Assembly (NCBI GenBank): GCA_026004395.1
Contig: BPJB01000001.1
Span: 15,543-79,542, forward strand
Direction: 5' to 3'
From: Patescibacteria group bacterium
GTDB lineage: Bacteria; Patescibacteriota; Microgenomatia; Levybacterales; UBA12049
Length of the DNA: 64,000 nt
Every line of letters begins with the position of its first letter. The first letter of the stretch is position 1. Shown piece by piece: positions 18,122 through 26,971 of this stretch. Both the position numbers and the translations under genes were made by a program. Below the pieces are notes generated by a model that saw nothing but the letters and a program-made list of their open reading frames with translations, searched no databases and was not told the DNA's origin.

Positions 18122-18329
18122 GATAATTATTCCTTTCTGAACATTATTTTTGAGAAAGCTTTTGATCTTTGTAAGAAAACATTAAGTCTAAGGCTAAAAA
18201 TTTTTAGAAAAATGTAATGATCAAGATTGATATTTTTCGTTATATTGACAGAAGATATATAGTGCCATATGATTTTTGTGGACACTAAATATATATCTGA
18301 ATAGAGTCTTTTTGGATAGGTATAAATCT

Positions 18330-18779
18330 ATGCATTGTCCGTATTGCGGTAGTAAGGAATCAGAGGTTGTTGAGACGCGAGAAAGCGAGGATTTGGATGC
18401 AATTCGAAGACGCAGAACATGTGCTGTATGTCAGAAAAGATTTACTACCTATGAGAGAGTGGAAACGGTAAATCTTTTTGTCATCAAAAAAGATGGTAGA
18501 AGAGAACAATTTGATCGCGAGAAGCTAAAAAAAGGACTTTTAAAAGCATGCGAGAAAACAACTGTTTCTGTTGCTGAGATTGATAAGATTGTTACAGAGA
18601 TTATTCGTGAGCTGAGAAGTGGCGACTCAGTTGAAATACCCAGTGAAACATTAGGGCAACTGGTGGCAGATCATCTCAAGCGAACGAATAAAATTGCTTA
18701 TATCAGATTTGCAAGTGTATTTAAACGTTTTGTTGATGTGGAAGATTTTGAGAGGGAAGTAAAAAAGTTATTAAACTAA
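18330..18779 (+). CDS. nrdR: transcriptional repressor NrdR
   Basis: Begins MHCPYCGSKESEVVETRES (zinc ribbon) followed by an ATP-cone. The track ORF starts earlier at 18276; MHCPYCG is the canonical start. Confidence 0.85.
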   Translation: MHCPYCGSKESEVVETRESEDLDAIRRRRTCAVCQKRFTTYERVETVNLFVIKKDGRREQFDREKLKKGLLKACEKTTVSVAEIDKIVTEIIRELRSGDSVEIPSETLGQLVADHLKRTNKIAYIRFASVFKRFVDVEDFEREVKKLLN

Positions 18780-18801: not shown

Positions 18802-21297
18802 TTGCTAAATAAATTAGATAAACATATGGCTACACAGCTTGATGGTATAAGAAAAAAAGTATTCTTGGATAGATACTCTCTAAAAGATGAGCATGGTAAT
18901 CCTTTGGAGAAAACCCCTGAGGAAATGTGGAGACGAGTAGCCAAAGGAATTGCCTCTGTTGAAAAGACGGCAGCTTTGCGTAATAAATGGGAGAAAAAAT
19001 TCTATGATCTGATGGAAGGATTTAAATTTCTTCCCGGTGGTCGAATATTAGCAGGCGCAGGTACTGGATTTGATGTTACTTATTTTAATTGTTTTGTTAT
19101 CCCCAATCCTCCTGACTCAAGAGGTGGAATAATGCAAAATCTTACTGAGATGATTGAGATTATGGCTCATGGTGGCGGAGTGGGCTTGAATCTTTCAGGA
19201 CTGCGCCCTCGTGGCTCCCGTGTTAAAAAGGTCAATGGATTTTCATCAGGACCTATTAACTGGGCAGAGTTATATTCCTTAGCTACAAAAGATATTGTTC
19301 AACAGGGAGGATCGCGACGAGGAGCACTTATGTTAATGCTTCATGACTGGCATCCTGATATTGAAGAATTTATTACTGTCAAACAAGATCTCACCAAGAT
19401 TAATGGAGCAAATCTCTCAGTCTGCGTGTCGGATAAATTTATGGAGGCTGTGAAAAATGATCAGGATTGGGATTTGGTTTATCCCGATTTAGATGATCCA
19501 GATTATGATAAAGAATGGAATGGTGATTTGGATGAATGGCAGGCTAAAGGACATAAAGTAAAAGTTTATAAAACAGTCAAAGCTTCCTATTTATGGAATC
19601 TTATTTGTGAAGCTGCATGGCGCTCAGCTGAGCCTGGACTGCACTTTCTTGAGAGATCAAATAAACGCTCAAATACTTGGTATTTTGAAAAATTAATTGC
19701 AACCAATCCCTGCGGTGAACAGCCTCTGGGTGCATGGGCTGTATGCAACTTGGGTGCGATGAATCTTGCAGCCTACGTCAAAGATGGAGAGTTTGATTAT
19801 GAAAGCTTTGGTCAAGATGTGCACATCGCTATGCGTTTTATGGATAATGTCATTGATGACACACATTATTTCTATGAAAAGAATGAAAAAGTTGCCAAAG
19901 ATATTCGTCGAACTGGTCTTGGTATATTAGGTCTTGCCGATGCTTTGATAAAAATGAAAGTTCGTTATGGCTCAGAAGAATCATTACCGATTTTGCATAA
20001 GATCTTTCAGACCTTAAGAGACAATGCATATATTGCATCCGCAAATCTTGCTAAAGAAAAAGGACCATTTCCTAAATTTGATAAGGAAAAATATCTTGAA
20101 GGTTATCATATTAAAAGACTTCCTGAAGAGATTAGATCTCTTATTCGCAAAAATGGAATTCGCAACGCTGTGCTTTTGACTATTGCTCCCACAGGCACCA
20201 CCAGTTTGTTATCGGGAGTTTCATCCGGTATCGAACCTGTGTATGAATTTGAGTTTATTAGACGTGATAGGTTGGGTGAACACAAAATGTATCATCCTCT
20301 TTATGATGAGTGGAGAAAGGCTCATCCAGGTGAGCCAAAGCCTGATTATTTTGTCTCTGCTAATGATCTGACTCCTGAGGAGCATGTCAGAGTTCAAGCA
20401 ATAGCCCAAGAGTATATTGATTCATCTATTTCCAAGACTGTGAATGCTCCTAATAAACACACTGTTGAAGATGTGAAGAAACTTTACATGATGGCATACG
20501 ATTACGGCTTAAAAGGAATTACCTATATGAGAGATGGATCAAGACAGGGTGTTCTAAGTCGTGCTGATTCTGAGCAAAAGAAGGAAGAATTGCCCAAACC
20601 AGCTGTTCCGGTTACTCCTCGTGTTCCACGTCCTGTTGTGTTGAATGGTACGACATATAAAGCAGATAGTCCTATTGGCAGGATGTATGTCACTATAAAC
20701 CATGATGCCAATAATCAACCATTTGAAGTATTTATCACCAGCGGCAAAAGTGGATCAGACGTGATGGCTATGGCAGATGCTCTTGGACGTATGATCTCAT
20801 TTGTGCTGCGTATCCATAGTCCTGTTCCTCCTCGCGAACGACTGCGAGAGATTGTTTCAGAACTCAGTGGTATTGGAGGTGCACGCAGTGTTGGATTTGG
20901 AGAGAATAAGGTTCGTTCACTACCCGATGCAATAGCTAAAGTTTTGGCAAAACATGCAAATTTTAGGGTCAATGGCAAAGTAGAGGATAAAAGTACCACA
21001 ACTTCACTAGATAATTCGATTGCACCAAACACACAGACTAATGGATCTTTTTCCCTCAATGGCAAGAGTAATGGTGAGGCTAATTTTAATCAAGCATCAT
21101 TTTTATCCAAAGTTGATCAAATAGAGACTGATTCTGCAGGACAACAACTTTCTTTAGAGGTTTCACAACTGCAGTTAAATACTCAGCAATTGCCATCAAC
21201 CAATCTTTTTGATATCTGTCCTAGCTGTGGTGCCGGAAGTTTTGCCTATGAAGAAGGTTGTAAAAAATGCTACGCTTGTGGATATAGTGAGTGTTAA
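18802..21297 (+). CDS. nrdJ: class II (adenosylcobalamin-dependent) ribonucleotide reductase with a C-terminal Cys4 zinc ribbon
   Basis: 831 aa; class II RNR core motifs (NPCGEQPL, CNLGAMNL); C-terminal CPSCGAG...CKKCYACG. Confidence 0.9.
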   Translation: MLNKLDKHMATQLDGIRKKVFLDRYSLKDEHGNPLEKTPEEMWRRVAKGIASVEKTAALRNKWEKKFYDLMEGFKFLPGGRILAGAGTGFDVTYFNCFVIPNPPDSRGGIMQNLTEMIEIMAHGGGVGLNLSGLRPRGSRVKKVNGFSSGPINWAELYSLATKDIVQQGGSRRGALMLMLHDWHPDIEEFITVKQDLTKINGANLSVCVSDKFMEAVKNDQDWDLVYPDLDDPDYDKEWNGDLDEWQAKGHKVKVYKTVKASYLWNLICEAAWRSAEPGLHFLERSNKRSNTWYFEKLIATNPCGEQPLGAWAVCNLGAMNLAAYVKDGEFDYESFGQDVHIAMRFMDNVIDDTHYFYEKNEKVAKDIRRTGLGILGLADALIKMKVRYGSEESLPILHKIFQTLRDNAYIASANLAKEKGPFPKFDKEKYLEGYHIKRLPEEIRSLIRKNGIRNAVLLTIAPTGTTSLLSGVSSGIEPVYEFEFIRRDRLGEHKMYHPLYDEWRKAHPGEPKPDYFVSANDLTPEEHVRVQAIAQEYIDSSISKTVNAPNKHTVEDVKKLYMMAYDYGLKGITYMRDGSRQGVLSRADSEQKKEELPKPAVPVTPRVPRPVVLNGTTYKADSPIGRMYVTINHDANNQPFEVFITSGKSGSDVMAMADALGRMISFVLRIHSPVPPRERLREIVSELSGIGGARSVGFGENKVRSLPDAIAKVLAKHANFRVNGKVEDKSTTTSLDNSIAPNTQTNGSFSLNGKSNGEANFNQASFLSKVDQIETDSAGQQLSLEVSQLQLNTQQLPSTNLFDICPSCGAGSFAYEEGCKKCYACGYSEC

Positions 21298-21394
21298 GAT
21301 TGATAAGATCAATTTTTAGAATACGAAGTAAATCAAGAGGTTGTTAGTTAGTGACAAGAAGTGAAATGTGAATTTTTTTGCATTTCACTAAAAT

Positions 21395-21500
21395 CATTTT
21401 AAAGAGATATCCGGTAAGCAGGGTGAAAATCCCTCTCAGTGCCGCTACTGTAAAGACAGAAAACGGATATCTCTTAGTTGATCCCGAGCAGGAATTTAGT
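21395..21500 (+). promoter_or_regulatory. putative cobalamin riboswitch aptamer (compact)
   Basis: GGGTGAAAATCCC...CAGTGCCGCTACTGTAAAG matches the cobalamin core (GGUGnnAAnUCC...CCGCnACUGUAA). It is closed by a perfect 10-bp P1 (gagatatccg 21403-21412 / cggatatctc 21463-21472). Context: between nrdJ and pduO. Confidence 0.45.
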
Positions 21501-21533
21501 AAATCCTTCTTGGGAATTAAGAAGGATTTTTTA
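21501..21533 (+). terminator. intrinsic terminator (putative riboswitch expression platform)
   Basis: aatccttctt-gggaatt-aagaaggatt, then TTTTTTA. Confidence 0.6.
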
Positions 21534-21585
21534 TTTCTCAACGAATTTGATTTGAATTTAATAATCTAAGACGATTTGAACTAAG

Positions 21586-21702
21586 ATGAAAAAGACATTG
21601 TATTTTGAACGCCCATCTACAACAAGAAGGATAATACTTACATTTTTAAGCGGTATTCTTTTTGCAGTAATTATTGTATTAATGATTATTTTTAGTAACT
21701 AA
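21586..21702 (+). CDS. small hydrophobic ORF (38 aa) between the riboswitch and pduO
   Basis: MKKTLYFERPSTTRRIILTFLSGILFAVIIVLMIIFSN; one TM helix. Below the 60-aa cutoff of the ORF track. Confidence 0.3.
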   Translation: MKKTLYFERPSTTRRIILTFLSGILFAVIIVLMIIFSN

Positions 21703-21817
21703 AGTATATTTGAGTTGGCAATACAATGCCTATTAAAAGCAGTGTGAGATACTATTTTTATTTAAATTTAAGTTTCACAAATTTTTGAGTTAATAAAAGA
21801 AAAGGAGAATAGCAATA

Positions 21818-22360
21818 ATGCCTTTATATACAAGAACAGGTGATAAAGGAGAGACATCGCTTTTTGGCGGAAAACGCGTTCTAAAATCAGATGATCGCGT
21901 TCAAACCTATGGAACAATAGATGAGTTAAATAGCGTATTGGGAATTGTTCTTTCTCAACTTGCATCTCGTCACTCTGAAGAAAAAAAGATGTTAGAAAAA
22001 ATTCAAAAAGATTTATTTGTTATAGGAGCATATCTTGCTAATCCTTTAGCAGAGCCTCTAACTCAGTTAGAGAAGCGGGTTAAAGAATTTGAGAAGATAA
22101 TCGATCAGCAAACAGAACAAATACCTCTACTTCGCAACTTTATTCTTCCTGGCGGTGGGAAAGCAGGAGCAACTCTTCATTATGCTCGTACAGTCTGTCG
22201 CAGAGCTGAGAGAAAGCTAGTTGCTCTTATGCAGAAAGAAGATTTGGATAGTTCTTTACTGAAGTATCTTAATCGGCTTTCAGATTTGTTGTATAGTACA
22301 GCACGTCTTATCAATCATAAAGAAAAAAAGAAAGAGACTATTTGGACAAATATCGGGTGA
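21818..22360 (+). CDS. ATP:cob(I)alamin adenosyltransferase, PduO-type
   Basis: MPLYTRTGDKGETSLFGGKRV... and conserved PduO/MMAB motifs; 180 aa; good RBS. Confidence 0.85.
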   Translation: MPLYTRTGDKGETSLFGGKRVLKSDDRVQTYGTIDELNSVLGIVLSQLASRHSEEKKMLEKIQKDLFVIGAYLANPLAEPLTQLEKRVKEFEKIIDQQTEQIPLLRNFILPGGGKAGATLHYARTVCRRAERKLVALMQKEDLDSSLLKYLNRLSDLLYSTARLINHKEKKKETIWTNIG

Positions 22361-22514
22361 AGCATGTGTGATTCATGCGCTGTGCCGCAACTGTGATTTG
22401 GCTAAGAAAGGTTAGTTTATTGCCAACTACTCTTAGTCCAAAAAGCCAGATCCCCGTCATAAATCTTCCGAGCAGAAGTACATATGTGCTCCTGACGGAA
22501 AAGGAGTTTTTTTT

Positions 22515-23927
22515 ATGGAAAGGGAAGCTACTAGATCAATTGTTGAGGGCAATAAAAATTTATATCAACCTCTTTTTTCCACAGAGATTAGTGGTTCCTT
22601 TAATAAAGGTAAAGATGTGATTAACGATCGAGATAGTATACTAACTCAATCTTGCGGTGAGACAGTAATTATCTATGATCAAGCAACTAACAACACTCTC
22701 AAACAATATGATGCTGATTTTGATACATGGGCATATCAAGAGATCCTGAAAATGCGTTTCTCTGATCCTCAGGAATACACTAGAAGAAAAGAACAACTTA
22801 ATGCCTACATAGATAAAAATCTTATAACAAGCATTGGTGAACGTTTGCAGGTGCTCTTAAGTAAAAGAACAGATAGAATTATTGATGGCAAAATATATCC
22901 TGCAGACTCTGATGAATCCATGAGAGAGATTATCTTAAGGGGAATCGAATGGTGTAAAAAAAATGGTTCTACACCACATGATCAGTTAAGAGAAGAAGCA
23001 GAGCTTAGAGGATTTGAGAAGATAGAAAGAGGATTAACTAATCCTAACACACAAATAGGAACAACTTATTTATTTTTTTCTCTTCCCGGAGGAGAAGGAT
23101 CTCAGTATCAAAAAAACTTTTATGATATCTTCACCCTAGAAGAGGAGAATGGGCAGCGGGTTGTTAAATATAGAAGATATAGCTCTAATCTTACTCAAAA
23201 GGACGCTTTGGAAAGGCTTAGACAAATGGGAGGAAGAGGCGAAATTCCAGAAAATCCTACAGATATTGATTTATTAGCCAATCCGATTAGATTTGATCCA
23301 GAACATCAATTTAGTAATCCTGACGCAATTCATCAATTTTTACATGTTGATCATCATGCCTTATCAGAAAAAGAGTTTGAGGAAATTGTAGAGATGTTTT
23401 CTCCCTACAGACAAAAATATATTGAACTTTTATCCAATGATCCCCTTAATATTAGAATGCGCAATCTTTTGCTTAATGCGATGATCAATGTTGCTGATGA
23501 TGCAGAACAACGAATTAGAAAGAGAAAACAGCGTAAGGAAAACAATATTTATCCGCCGCTTTATTATACTGCATCGGAGCGTGAGATTATGTTCTTTGGT
23601 ACAAGACCGGTAATTAATAGAGATACAGGTTGCAGATTATCTTCTGGATTTTTAATAGGGTCCTATGACATTATCAGTGGACCAATGGGTGTATACAGTG
23701 TTTATGATATTGGTTTTGCTCTTCAAAGTTTACGTCCAGAAGATGATCCTAATTTGTGCCGTTGCGGTGGATCGTCGCCGCATTTTCATTGCCCTGGTCG
23801 TAAAACAATCATAGAAGAGGATAAAAATGGTAAAAAGAGAACAAAACAAATTGATTGTAAAAATAAAATTATTGTAGGATTGGGAATTGTTCGCTGCCCT
23901 GAGTGTGGGGAAGGAAAGAAATGCTAA
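22515..23927 (+). CDS. hypothetical protein with a C-terminal Cys-rich zinc ribbon
   Basis: 470 aa. C-terminus CRCGGSSPHFHCPG...CPECGEGKKC. Confidence 0.45.
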   Translation: MEREATRSIVEGNKNLYQPLFSTEISGSFNKGKDVINDRDSILTQSCGETVIIYDQATNNTLKQYDADFDTWAYQEILKMRFSDPQEYTRRKEQLNAYIDKNLITSIGERLQVLLSKRTDRIIDGKIYPADSDESMREIILRGIEWCKKNGSTPHDQLREEAELRGFEKIERGLTNPNTQIGTTYLFFSLPGGEGSQYQKNFYDIFTLEEENGQRVVKYRRYSSNLTQKDALERLRQMGGRGEIPENPTDIDLLANPIRFDPEHQFSNPDAIHQFLHVDHHALSEKEFEEIVEMFSPYRQKYIELLSNDPLNIRMRNLLLNAMINVADDAEQRIRKRKQRKENNIYPPLYYTASEREIMFFGTRPVINRDTGCRLSSGFLIGSYDIISGPMGVYSVYDIGFALQSLRPEDDPNLCRCGGSSPHFHCPGRKTIIEEDKNGKKRTKQIDCKNKIIVGLGIVRCPECGEGKKC

Positions 23928-24100: not shown

Positions 24101-24607
24101 ATGTCAGATGATCAAACACTACACAAAAATCAACCAAATAGCCAAGCTGATTCAGATCAAATCAACTACTCAAAGAATCAGGAAGGTAATCCTTCTTCGT
24201 CTTTAGCGCAGAATTCATCAGTGCAGAATTTAATAAGCGGTCCCCAAAAAGAACATGCGCCCTTAGAAGCGCCTGTTGTAGATTATATCAAGCCTACAGA
24301 GGTAGAACCTGTTCTTCATCCGGAAGTAAAAGAAGTAGGAGTCGAGATTTCACATGATCAAGAAAAACCAAAGCTTACAGAAGAACATCAACGCTTAGGT
24401 ATAGAATACGCAAAGGAATCAGTTCCTGTTTCTTTATCCAAAACCTCTGGTACTAATCTTCCTTATAATCCAGAACAAATAGCAATGCTTAAAAAAACTA
24501 CCCATAAAGACGATTCTAAACACTGGCTGGTAATTTTAACAGAGTATTTACTGAAAAAATTATCTTTTAATTCCAATCAAATGCGCAATCAGGAAAGGAG
24601 GGAGTGA
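24101..24607 (+). CDS. hypothetical protein
   Basis: ORF track only; the stop is 7 nt before the next gene. Confidence 0.35.
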   Translation: MSDDQTLHKNQPNSQADSDQINYSKNQEGNPSSSLAQNSSVQNLISGPQKEHAPLEAPVVDYIKPTEVEPVLHPEVKEVGVEISHDQEKPKLTEEHQRLGIEYAKESVPVSLSKTSGTNLPYNPEQIAMLKKTTHKDDSKHWLVILTEYLLKKLSFNSNQMRNQERRE

Positions 24608-24613
24608 TCATCA

Positions 24614-26971
24614 ATGTCAGCTGAGGGCTTAATATATCTTTTTTTTGGTATAGCTATTGGCTTTGCGTTATTAGGATTTTTGATTTTAGGATTAGGTTAT
24701 ATTTTTATCTTGTGGATGCGTAATAAAGGCCGTGAGAGTGAGTCTTTGAACTCGGTTTTACTTCAAGTATCTGTTCCGCGTGATAACGAGATTAAAATAG
24801 ATGCAGCAGAACAACTTTTTTCAAGTCTTGCATCACTGAGAAAAGGAGGCAGATTATCTTTCCTTAAACCTCAACCCCATCTTTCATTCGAGATCGTGGG
24901 AATGCCGGGTGATATTCGTTTTTATGTGCACGTTCCCAAGAAATACCAAGATTTTGTGGAAAAACAGATTAATGGAGCATATCCTGATGCTGAAATTGTT
25001 GAAGTGAGTGATCCTGCGGCTCGATCAAAAGAAGGAACTGTTATTGGAGGAGAATACAATATCTTTTCCGAAACAGGCAAAGTAGCTTTTGCATCTCTCA
25101 CATTAAAAGGAGATGATTATAAGCCTATCAAAGTCTTTAAAGATATGCCAGTTGACCCTCTTGCATCTCTGACTTCAATTCTTGCCAAAATGGGAGAAGG
25201 TGAAGGAGCAGCCATTCAATTTCTTATTCAACCAGCTGATTCCAAATGGAAAGAAAGCGGCAAAGAGTATCTTGCCAAAACGAAAAAAAACGAAGCCAAT
25301 CCTGAAACAGCCAAGTATAATGCAGATGCAAAAGAGTTGGAGGCAATAGAAAATAAACTTGGCAAGCCTGGATTTCATACAGTAGTTCGAGTAGTTGTTT
25401 CATCATCAACAAAAGAAGCTGCAGAGGCACATCTATCAAATATAATTAATGCCTTTAGTCAATATGCGGGGGTTAATTCATTTACTAAGAATAAACATTA
25501 CTTTAAAGGATTATTTGTTACAGATTTTATATATCGTTACTTTCCTATGCGGGGACAAACAGCTATTCTCAATAGTGAAGAATTGGCAACTCTTTTTCAT
25601 TTTCCCAATAAGAGTGTAACAACTCCTGGTATACATTGGGTTATCTCCAAGCGTGCTCCAGCTCCTGCAAATATTCCCACTGAGGGACTACATCTTGGTA
25701 AAAGCGTTTTTAGGGGGATTGTACGACCTGTTTTTATTGGTAGAGAGGATAGAAGACGCCATATGTATATTATTGGAAAAACAGGTACAGGTAAAACAGA
25801 GTTTCTCAAGCACATGATTATGCAGGATATTCGAGGTGGTGAAGGAGTTGCGGTTATAGATCCTCATGGAGACCTGATTGAGGATATTCTACAGCTTATG
25901 CCTCCAGAGAGAGCAGAGGATGTAATTCTTTTTGATCCATCGGATGTAGAACAACCTCTTGGATTCAATATGTTAGAGGCACAGACTGAGCAGCAGAAAC
26001 ATTTGGTGACGACTTCAGTCATTGGTCTGATGTATAAATTGTTTGATCCTAATAAGACAGGAATTATTGGTCCTCGCTTTGAGCATGCTGTTCGTAATGC
26101 TATGTTAACTGTGATGTATCAGCCGGGAGCAACTTTTATAGAGGTAGTGCGTGCGCTTACAGACCCATCATTTGTTCAGGAGCTTTTACCCCGAGTGGAG
26201 GATCCTGTCATCAGACGTTACTGGACAGATCAAATTGCCCAAACAAGCGATTTTCATAAATCAGAAGTACTTGACTATATTGTCTCCAAATTTGGTCGCT
26301 TCGTGACAAATAAGATGATTCGCAATATTATCGGTCAATCAGAGAGTGCGTTTAATTTTAGGGAAGCGATGGATACGCAAAAAATTCTTCTTATCAATCT
26401 TTCCAAAGGAAAGATAGGAGAGGAGAACTCAAGTTTCCTGGGTCTTGTGTTAGTGCCAAAAATCTTAGTTGCTGCTATGTCTAGACAAGATATGCCAATG
26501 GAAGATAGGCGAGATTTTTTCCTTTATGTTGATGAGTTTCAGAATTTCGCAACACCTGATTTTGCCCAAATTCTATCAGAGGCTAGAAAGTATCGCTTAA
26601 ATCTTATCGTTGCCAATCAATTTGTTGGACAAATGGAAGAGGAGGTAAAGAATGCTATTTTTGGTAATGTTGGTACATTATGTGCTTTTCGTGTAGGCGT
26701 CACTGATGCCAATTATCTTCAGCATGAGTTCCAGCCAACCTTCACAGAGGCTGATCTGATTAATATTGATAGGTTTAACTGTTATGTAAGAACAATTGTT
26801 GATGGTGAGCCTGTACCACCATTCTCTCTTGACACAACTAAAGATATTGCTGCTGAGAAGGCACTGCGTGATCCACGTGTTGCTGAGCTAGTGAAAGAAC
26901 TCTCTCGTCTCAAATATGGTAGGAACGTCAAGGTTGTAGAAGCAGAAATTACTCAGCGTGCCAAACTATAG
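24614..26971 (+). CDS. conjugative coupling-protein (TraD/VirD4/TraG-family)-like ATPase with an N-terminal TM hairpin
   Basis: N-terminal TM region; Walker A IIGKTGTGKT; Walker B FLYVDEFQNF; ARKYRLNLIVANQ motif. The stop TAG abuts the tRNA. Confidence 0.65.
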   Translation: MSAEGLIYLFFGIAIGFALLGFLILGLGYIFILWMRNKGRESESLNSVLLQVSVPRDNEIKIDAAEQLFSSLASLRKGGRLSFLKPQPHLSFEIVGMPGDIRFYVHVPKKYQDFVEKQINGAYPDAEIVEVSDPAARSKEGTVIGGEYNIFSETGKVAFASLTLKGDDYKPIKVFKDMPVDPLASLTSILAKMGEGEGAAIQFLIQPADSKWKESGKEYLAKTKKNEANPETAKYNADAKELEAIENKLGKPGFHTVVRVVVSSSTKEAAEAHLSNIINAFSQYAGVNSFTKNKHYFKGLFVTDFIYRYFPMRGQTAILNSEELATLFHFPNKSVTTPGIHWVISKRAPAPANIPTEGLHLGKSVFRGIVRPVFIGREDRRRHMYIIGKTGTGKTEFLKHMIMQDIRGGEGVAVIDPHGDLIEDILQLMPPERAEDVILFDPSDVEQPLGFNMLEAQTEQQKHLVTTSVIGLMYKLFDPNKTGIIGPRFEHAVRNAMLTVMYQPGATFIEVVRALTDPSFVQELLPRVEDPVIRRYWTDQIAQTSDFHKSEVLDYIVSKFGRFVTNKMIRNIIGQSESAFNFREAMDTQKILLINLSKGKIGEENSSFLGLVLVPKILVAAMSRQDMPMEDRRDFFLYVDEFQNFATPDFAQILSEARKYRLNLIVANQFVGQMEEEVKNAIFGNVGTLCAFRVGVTDANYLQHEFQPTFTEADLINIDRFNCYVRTIVDGEPVPPFSLDTTKDIAAEKALRDPRVAELVKELSRLKYGRNVKVVEAEITQRAKL

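Follow-up and report, generated by a model that had tools for sequence, protein, structure and literature searches.

In the window (the whole 64-kb stretch of DNA that was analysed), a gene for NrdR (18276-18779; Pfam, NCBIfam) is followed by the upstream cistron nrdJ, which encodes a class II B12-dependent RNR (18802-21297, +; Pfam). The RNA element described here occupies 21403-21532. The first ORF on its 3' side encodes 38 aa with a single TM segment (21586-21702, +), and a PduO-type cob(I)alamin adenosyltransferase gene lies at 21818-22360 (+; PF01923, 6.7e-59; TIGR00636, 3.7e-58). In this ultrasmall (CPR) bacterium, the element thus sits between the genes for a B12-dependent RNR and a B12 adenosyltransferase. 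The first-pass annotation had read the same order of genes, and Pfam and NCBIfam confirm it. PduO is the main gene predicted to be under the control of the element.

The element is a class II cobalamin riboswitch, that is, a member of a known compact class in the Rfam clan CL00101, and RF01689 (AdoCbl-II) is its best model. When the whole window was searched with Rfam 15 at the gathering thresholds, four tRNAs and one riboswitch were returned, the latter being the RF01689 match at 21403-21474 (+). Its 38.2 bits exceed the gathering score of 36.5 by just 1.7 bits, and its E-value is 1.7e-5 across the 64-kb window and 1.6e-7 when 600 nt are searched. The alignment spans the full model (1-81), and model positions 7-13, the 7-nt 5' internal bulge J1/3, are deleted. 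Only the best clan member is kept by cmscan, so that RF01689 is shown, and two other clan matches scored lower; RF01482 ranks below RF01689 for 21403-21474, and RF00174 loses the clan competition for the same interval. The covariance-model search named by the first-pass annotation as a check on a putative cobalamin riboswitch therefore came out above the gathering score. The core GGTGAAAATCCCTCTCAGTGCCGCTACTGTAA (21422-21453), searched with its actual spacing, has a single match in the 64-kb window, where 100 shuffles give an expectation of 0.00. The match of this core to the cobalamin riboswitch consensus had been reported before; the core itself is present, but the published wording of that consensus in the annotation, GGUGnnAAnUCC, contains an extra n and for that reason matches nowhere.

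The aptamer is 72 nt long and forms a four-way junction of P3-P6 closed by an uninterrupted 11-bp P1-P3 stack. The 5' strand of the stack, AGAGAUAUCCG (21403-21413, +), is continuous and pairs with the 3' strand, CGGAUAUCUCU (21464-21474, +), with no J1/3 bulge; the enclosing perfect helix of the first-pass annotation is thus present, with 11 bp in place of the 10 bp given there. J3/4 is GUAAG (21414-21418, +), and type A copies, those at the same genomic position, show G(U/C/A)AA(G/U/A). P4 with a 7-nt L4, UGAAAAU, covers 21419-21435 (+), its stem AGGG/CCCU pairing 21420-21423 with 21431-21434, and the loop length matches RF01689. P5 (AGU/GCU; 21438-21446, +) carries L5 GCC (21441-21443), unchanged in 29/29 copies, and 5'-UGCCG-3', which is L5 plus its closing U and G, is the sequence proposed to form the kissing loop. 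P6 (CUG/CAG; 21448-21459, +) ends in a minimal 6-nt L6, UAAAGA. J6/3 is AAAA (21460-21463, +), as in 14/14 type A copies, and AUCC/ACCx is found in most type B copies. The P6 extension, the P2 arm, and the P7-P11 peripheral extension are all absent.

In relatives, L6 is either 6-7 nt long or contains an insertion of 26-72 nt. The inserted hairpin is found in either subtype, with the flanks U...AAAG(U/C) kept. Copies with the insertion are L004 2713-2851, L011, L012, L013 2224-2371, L014 1932-2068, and, among type B, 22337-22480 of the window and others; in four type A relatives it measures 36-50 nt. These insertions may represent P6 extensions that were acquired independently, and they recall the periphery of class I.

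Relatives of the PduO protein were searched in 185,579 species genomes, and the closest are from Levybacteria-like Patescibacteria MAGs, at no more than 67% identity. RF01689 matches were found in 10 of the 20 closest PduO loci, and nine directly adjoin PduO. A covariance model, designated R1, was built from a 5-sequence seed with a hand-specified structure of P3, P4, P5, P6, and the downstream hairpin P13. It scores the element at 85.1 bits and gives 29 strong matches in the approximately 20 closest PduO loci, namely the window's element and 28 relatives adjoining PduO genes in Patescibacteria. When metagenomes were scanned with a degenerate pattern, at least 120 matches were obtained; 80 loci were taken forward, and R1 matches 74 times in these 80 loci.

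Both sets of copies support the helices. In the genome-set alignment, 94.6% of cells are paired, versus 34-47% when the 3' partners are slid, and in the independent metagenome set the values are 92.1% and 34-45%. Double changes are seen in 16 of the 18 pairs in the genome set, where 0/500 shuffles reach the observed covariation score, and in 14-16 of 18 across both sets, counts which are to be read with the leaning of Infernal alignments towards the model structure. P3, P4, P5, and P13 co-vary strongly (92-95% paired vs. 34-47% in slid controls). P4 shows double changes in 5/5 pairs of the genome set and 95% pairing in the metagenome set; in P5, pairing reaches 99% and AU/UA and GC/CG/AU exchanges occur; P1 is a stack of 10-12 bp, of unrelated sequence, in all type A copies. 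The GGUG and ACUGU blocks, on whose conservation in related genomes the first-pass annotation had staked its proposal, are conserved in orthologous loci, and compensatory changes in the helices are abundant. The marginal Rfam score would suit a chance resemblance, in which an nrdJ terminator happens to stand beside unrelated hairpins. This explanation is refuted by the comparative data and can be given practically no weight: there are more than 100 homologous copies with strong covariation and a phylogenetic footprint, and the core pattern is expected 0.00 times.

The footprint was obtained from a three-way comparison of the window with two closer genomes of the same gene order (L081 and L082). 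Identity across the three is 91.7% in the aptamer, 89.5% in the linker and P13, and 83.3% in the terminator block, versus 20% in the spacer from nrdJ to P1 and 26% between the small ORF and PduO; it is 48% in the post-terminator sequence and 81% in the small ORF. The contrast between 83-92% in the aptamer, P13, and terminator and 20-26% in the spacers indicates continued purifying selection. The interval had been drawn as 21354-21533; the functional unit 21403-21532 falls within it, but its first approximately 50 nt (21354-21402), a hairpin included, are unconserved in close relatives. That hairpin, between the nrdJ stop codon and the aptamer (21358-21390, +), is AU-rich, has 9 bp (AGTGAAATG...CATTTCACT), and is specific to this genome. 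It was considered as a terminator of nrdJ or as part of the switch and rejected, as it lacks a U run and shows no conservation in L081/L082; its Rfam matches are spurious ones to miRNA models only, and the surrounding spacer is the one with 20% identity.

Downstream from the aptamer, the P13 hairpin (21482-21493, +) is composed of UCC, the loop L13 CGAGCA (21485-21490), and GGA. P13 is common to all copies, with the stems UCC/GGA, UCU/AGA, CCU/AGG, and CUUC/GAAG; double changes are found in 4/4 pairs, and L13 CGAGCA is essentially invariant. An intrinsic terminator is predicted at 21501-21532 (+), consisting of AAAUCCUUCUUG, the loop GGAAU, UAAGAAGGAUUU, and a U run. Its stem (21501-21529) has 13 pairs, followed by TTTTTTATTT, with the U run reaching 21532. 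No other terminator-like site was found in 21000-22000 (0.4 sites in shuffles), and the strong intrinsic terminator seen by the first-pass annotation is therefore real as a predicted site. The terminator 3' arm contains the SD-like AAGAAGGA (21519-21526). In the copies, P13 is followed on its 3' side by UCCUUCUCGG and then, in 25 of the 29, by a GGAGG-type Shine-Dalgarno sequence, U6-8, and AUG. Thus, the 3' arm of the terminator is the SD and the U tract is the spacer between SD and AUG.

A second fold, the antiterminator (21482-21515, +), pairs UCCCGAG.AGGA with UCCU.CUUGGGA and uses up L13 and the 3' arm of P13. It and the combination of P13 with the terminator are mutually exclusive. In the copies, L13 CGAG and the 3' arm of P13 pair with UCCU..CUCGG, and pairing in the core of the antiterminator is 97.5% over 20 copies, versus 39-62% when slid. 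The terminator helix is 81% paired, a value diluted by the type B register, since the subtypes lack one common register. Column 5 of the platform co-varies with both alternative partners; the covariation of the platform mostly tracks the split between the paralogous subtypes type A and type B, and therefore represents few independent events. The unconstrained MFE structure is the antiterminator in 15/23 platforms, and with L13 held unpaired, the terminator and P13 are obtained in 23/23. In the window the two folds are nearly isoenergetic (−15.0 kcal/mol for the antiterminator, the unconstrained MFE, vs. −14.4 kcal/mol for the terminator), and across platforms the energy gap is 0-7 kcal/mol. 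A terminator-based OFF platform had been proposed in the first-pass annotation, and both conservation and two-state folding support it; the P13/L13 hairpin and the antiterminator had been missed.

L13, 5'-CG(A)GCA, is complementary to L5, 5'-UGCCG, over 5 bp with a bulged A. This complementarity was spotted post hoc, and because both loops are invariant, the L5-L13 kiss that we infer from it has no covariation support. The L5-L13 kissing loop is the ligand-stabilised regulatory switch in all characterised cobalamin riboswitch classes (PMC7367189, PMC6158498). A mechanism can be proposed on this model. With corrinoid bound, L5 (UGCCG) would kiss L13 (CG(A)GCA) of P13 at 21482-21493 and hold P13 closed. 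This would leave UCCUUCUUG free to pair with AAGAAGGA in the terminator 21501-21532, and transcription would stop ahead of the 38-aa ORF and PduO. Without ligand, P13 would open, CGAG and AGGA would pair with UCCU and CUUGGG in the antiterminator 21482-21515, and RNA polymerase would read through. In most relatives the same switch would also block translation, because there the terminator 3' arm is a true SD before U6-8 and AUG. It is most likely that the downstream genes are shut off when B12 is plentiful.

The opposite direction, in which the ligand favours the antiterminator and PduO is induced in the presence of cobalamin, would make metabolic sense as induction of an adenosyltransferase by its substrate, and an activating corrinoid riboswitch has been reported (PMC10327014). 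The geometry of the platform makes such an ON switch very improbable: L13 CGAG is base-paired in the antiterminator and cannot kiss L5, a single-stranded L13 leads to the terminator in all 23 copies, and the terminator fold also buries the SD in relatives.

In relatives, the aptamer starts 0-50 nt past the nrdJ stop codon in many genomes, and therefore it probably represents an attenuator located between cistrons of the nrdJ transcript rather than a 5' leader. Promoter-like sites numbered 3 against 3.9 expected in shuffles, and no promoter could be assigned from them. The nrdJ transcript probably runs into the switch.

The U tract is followed by ATT and not ATG in the window, L081, and L082. 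As the start codon is gone in the sub-lineage of the window, only termination can act there. The ATT frames, at 21533-21550 in the window and at the equivalent positions of L081 and L082, have 4-7 codons (ISQRI*, IQQI*, IIQQFKI*); they could reflect a vestigial or non-canonical start, or AT-rich chance.

The order of genes around the switch is conserved as nrdR, nrdJ, aptamer, optional DUF4430 and DUF6580 proteins, PduO, a second aptamer, an approximately 470-aa protein, an approximately 165-aa protein, and a 785-aa TrwB/VirD4-like ATPase. Transcobalamin-type B12 binders have DUF4430 as their C-terminal domain (PMC4350170), and DUF6580 shows a weak match to ECF S-components. The presence of these two genes and of PduO downstream of the switch in relatives is indirect support for a corrinoid as the ligand. 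Both genes are lost from the window and its close relatives, where the 38-aa remnant stays. The small ORF shares 44% identity over 27 aa with the N-terminus of the DUF4430 protein of L002; judged by this similarity, it is a putative remnant of the lost DUF4430 B12-binder gene, of which the N-terminal membrane anchor has been kept. It is intact, with 38-42 aa in the window, L081 (3106-3225), and L082 (3052-3180), at the 81% nucleotide identity given above, and with 35 aa in L004 (2892-2999), where it abuts the PduO ATG. Being intact in four genomes, it may be a functional micro-protein or may be kept for translational coupling.

With the start codon missing and the uptake genes deleted in the window and in the two genomes closest to it, the switch may have become vestigial in part. 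Taken further, the element would be a decaying relic, an aptamer still recognisable that regulates nothing useful in this lineage. The missing ATG past the U run, the absence of DUF4430 and DUF6580 apart from the 38-aa remnant, and a PduO gene with its own SD 285 nt downstream fit such decay. The identity of 83-92% in the aptamer, P13, and terminator, against spacers of 20-26%, does not, nor do the two intact and nearly isoenergetic folds, and no conserved promoter lies between the terminator and PduO. Decay is accordingly an unlikely explanation, and a working riboswitch is preferred. The probability that 21403-21532 is a functional class II cobalamin riboswitch of Patescibacteria, acting as an OFF switch in the nrdR-nrdJ-PduO string, is estimated at about 80%.

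A second cobalamin aptamer occupies 22337-22480 (+) and overlaps the stop codon of PduO; its platform extends to 22514. It belongs to type B, with J3/4 GUGAA, J6/3 AUCC, a J1/3 junction, and a 53-nt L6 insertion. Its platform, CUUC-CGAGCA-GAAG...GGAGU8AUG, feeds the ORF at 22515. It was missed at the Rfam gathering threshold (RF00174, 19.9 vs. 31.5 bits); it reaches 67.6 bits under R1, and L081 and L082 both have it in conserved form. Many such copies fall under the Rfam threshold in the same way. At a distant locus, the slot after PduO contains an element (L018 3505-3644) that reaches the RF00174 gathering score with 35.1 bits, and therefore one genomic slot holds different cobalamin aptamer architectures across lineages.

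The second aptamer is predicted to control an unannotated protein family, designated p470. This family comprises 605 clusters at 50% identity and was seen here only in Patescibacteria-type contigs; it has no Pfam or NCBIfam annotation and no solved structural relative. On the 3' side of the p470 gene, a 168-aa protein without a family (24101-24607, +) and a 785-aa TrwB/VirD4/HerA-like ATPase (24614-26971, +) are encoded, and both are kept in all relatives; DUF8128 is recognized for the ATPase in relatives, and a tyrosine integrase comes next after it in L081 and L082.

The presence or absence of J1/3 tracks the gene class. A P1-P3 stack that runs uninterrupted for 9 bp or more is present in 22 of 25 metagenomic copies upstream of uptake or PduO genes and in 2 of 28 before p470-family genes, among the metagenomic matches listed; the association between J1/3 and gene class has a Fisher p of 1.2e-9 in these matches, uncorrected for phylogeny. 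The J6/3 sequence AAAA was also considered as a mark of the PduO-linked subtype and was discarded, as AAAA copies precede p470-like genes as well; GAAAAC was fixed in the scan pattern.

The bulged J1/3 T-loop of Cbl-IIa, which responds to HyCbl/MeCbl, contacts J6/3, buttresses the ligand pocket, and is a key determinant of selectivity (PMC6158498, PMC7367189). In Cbl-IIb, which responds to AdoCbl in E. faecalis, J1/3 is paired, mismatched, or absent (PMC7367189 Fig. 1; PMC6158498), and J1/3-less or paired members bind AdoCbl (PMC7367189). The element does not show the J1/3 feature of Cbl-IIa, since J1/3 is absent, though RF01689 is its best model. Its J1/3 region agrees with the definition of Cbl-IIb in PMC7367189 (Fig. 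1), and its 6-nt L6 differs from the short P6 hairpin of that subtype. Because J1/3 is absent and the stack follows gene position, AdoCbl is the better guess for the ligand, as product feedback on uptake and adenosylation. Favoured by the missing J1/3 together with the uptake and adenosylation genes, AdoCbl is nevertheless the least certain part of the proposal.

The same riboswitch with the same mechanism could instead bind a non-adenosylated form (hydroxo-, aquo-, or methyl-cobalamin), as the env8-type Cbl-IIa does, or could fail to discriminate between forms. RF01689, the Cbl-IIa family, scores above the two other clan members, L6 has the simple loop of Cbl-IIa in place of the short hairpin described for Cbl-IIb (PMC7367189 Fig. 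1), and the selectivity spectrum of class II is broad (PMC6158498). On the other hand, the J1/3 T-loop, which in Cbl-IIa supports the HyCbl pocket (PMC6158498), is wholly absent, AdoCbl binding is the rule for J1/3-less or paired members (PMC7367189), and an adenosyltransferase repressed by its own substrate would be an odd regulatory logic. A non-adenosylated ligand thus deserves to be kept in mind as the less probable case, and AdoCbl remains the candidate ligand.

Two structurally different class II aptamers might represent two separate corrinoid inputs, the J1/3-less one serving uptake and adenosylation and the J1/3-containing one at 22337-22480 serving p470; this idea is offered tentatively. 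If J1/3 sets selectivity as in characterised class II riboswitches, the cell would have separate sensors for AdoCbl and for non-adenosylated cobalamin, and if the two-input reading is true, the p470 family would have a new B12-linked function.

The finding is unsurprising in itself, because the riboswitch class is known, and the element on its own has modest significance, as one more class II cobalamin riboswitch that is well supported, very small, and devoid of J1/3. Three features go beyond routine annotation, namely the architecture without J1/3, the pairing of two subtypes, and an unannotated protein family under predicted B12 control. A literature search found no paper on natural riboswitches in Patescibacteria. 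Reduced genomes that rely on scavenged B12 for the nrdJ RNR would keep RNA-based feedback on uptake and adenosylation. The paired subtypes provide a natural setting in which to test how J1/3 affects ligand selectivity, and the riboswitch-flagged p470 family is a concrete lead to a missing B12-handling step in CPR bacteria.

Among known systems, Cbl-IIa/RF01689 (AdoCbl-II, formerly AdoCbl-variant; env8HyCbl from marine metagenomes, PDB 4FRN and 4FRG) shares with the element the P3-P6 junction, the 7-nt L4 T-loop (GUGAAAxUC), the U.G-closed P5, the ACUGU of P6, the plain L6, the downstream P13/L13 hairpin, and the size of approximately 75 nt. Unlike Cbl-IIa, the element has no J1/3 bulge, its J6/3 is AAAA and not AGCG-like, its L5 is GCC and not CCU, and its L13 contains no SD; the output would be relayed through a terminator and an antiterminator and not through direct SD occlusion in P13. 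With Cbl-IIb/RF01482 (Enterococcus faecalis, Listeria eut loci) it has in common the class II core and a J1/3 that is paired or absent, and Cbl-IIb is also associated with AdoCbl-dependent metabolism. The short hairpin on P6 of Cbl-IIb is a 6-nt loop here, and the Cbl-IIb examples act in trans or via sRNA sequestration, whereas the element is predicted to be a cis terminator. With Cbl-I/RF00174 (btuB-type), it shares the clan and the B12-box core GCCGCNACUG, and its proposed L5-L13 kissing loop would follow the same principle; the Cbl-I features of a P2 arm and a large P6 extension are absent, as are P7-P11, and the element is approximately half the size. The first-pass annotation had suspected a variant from the shortness of the element, and it is indeed compact and without J1/3, but it is not a new variant and has the known class II architecture. 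As in other terminator or SD-sequestering platforms, one hairpin is the terminator and also sequesters the SD in relatives. What sets this family apart from such platforms in general is that the terminator's U tract also spaces the SD from the AUG (GGAGGA-U7-AUG). The arrangement is very compact, and in the window its AUG has been lost.
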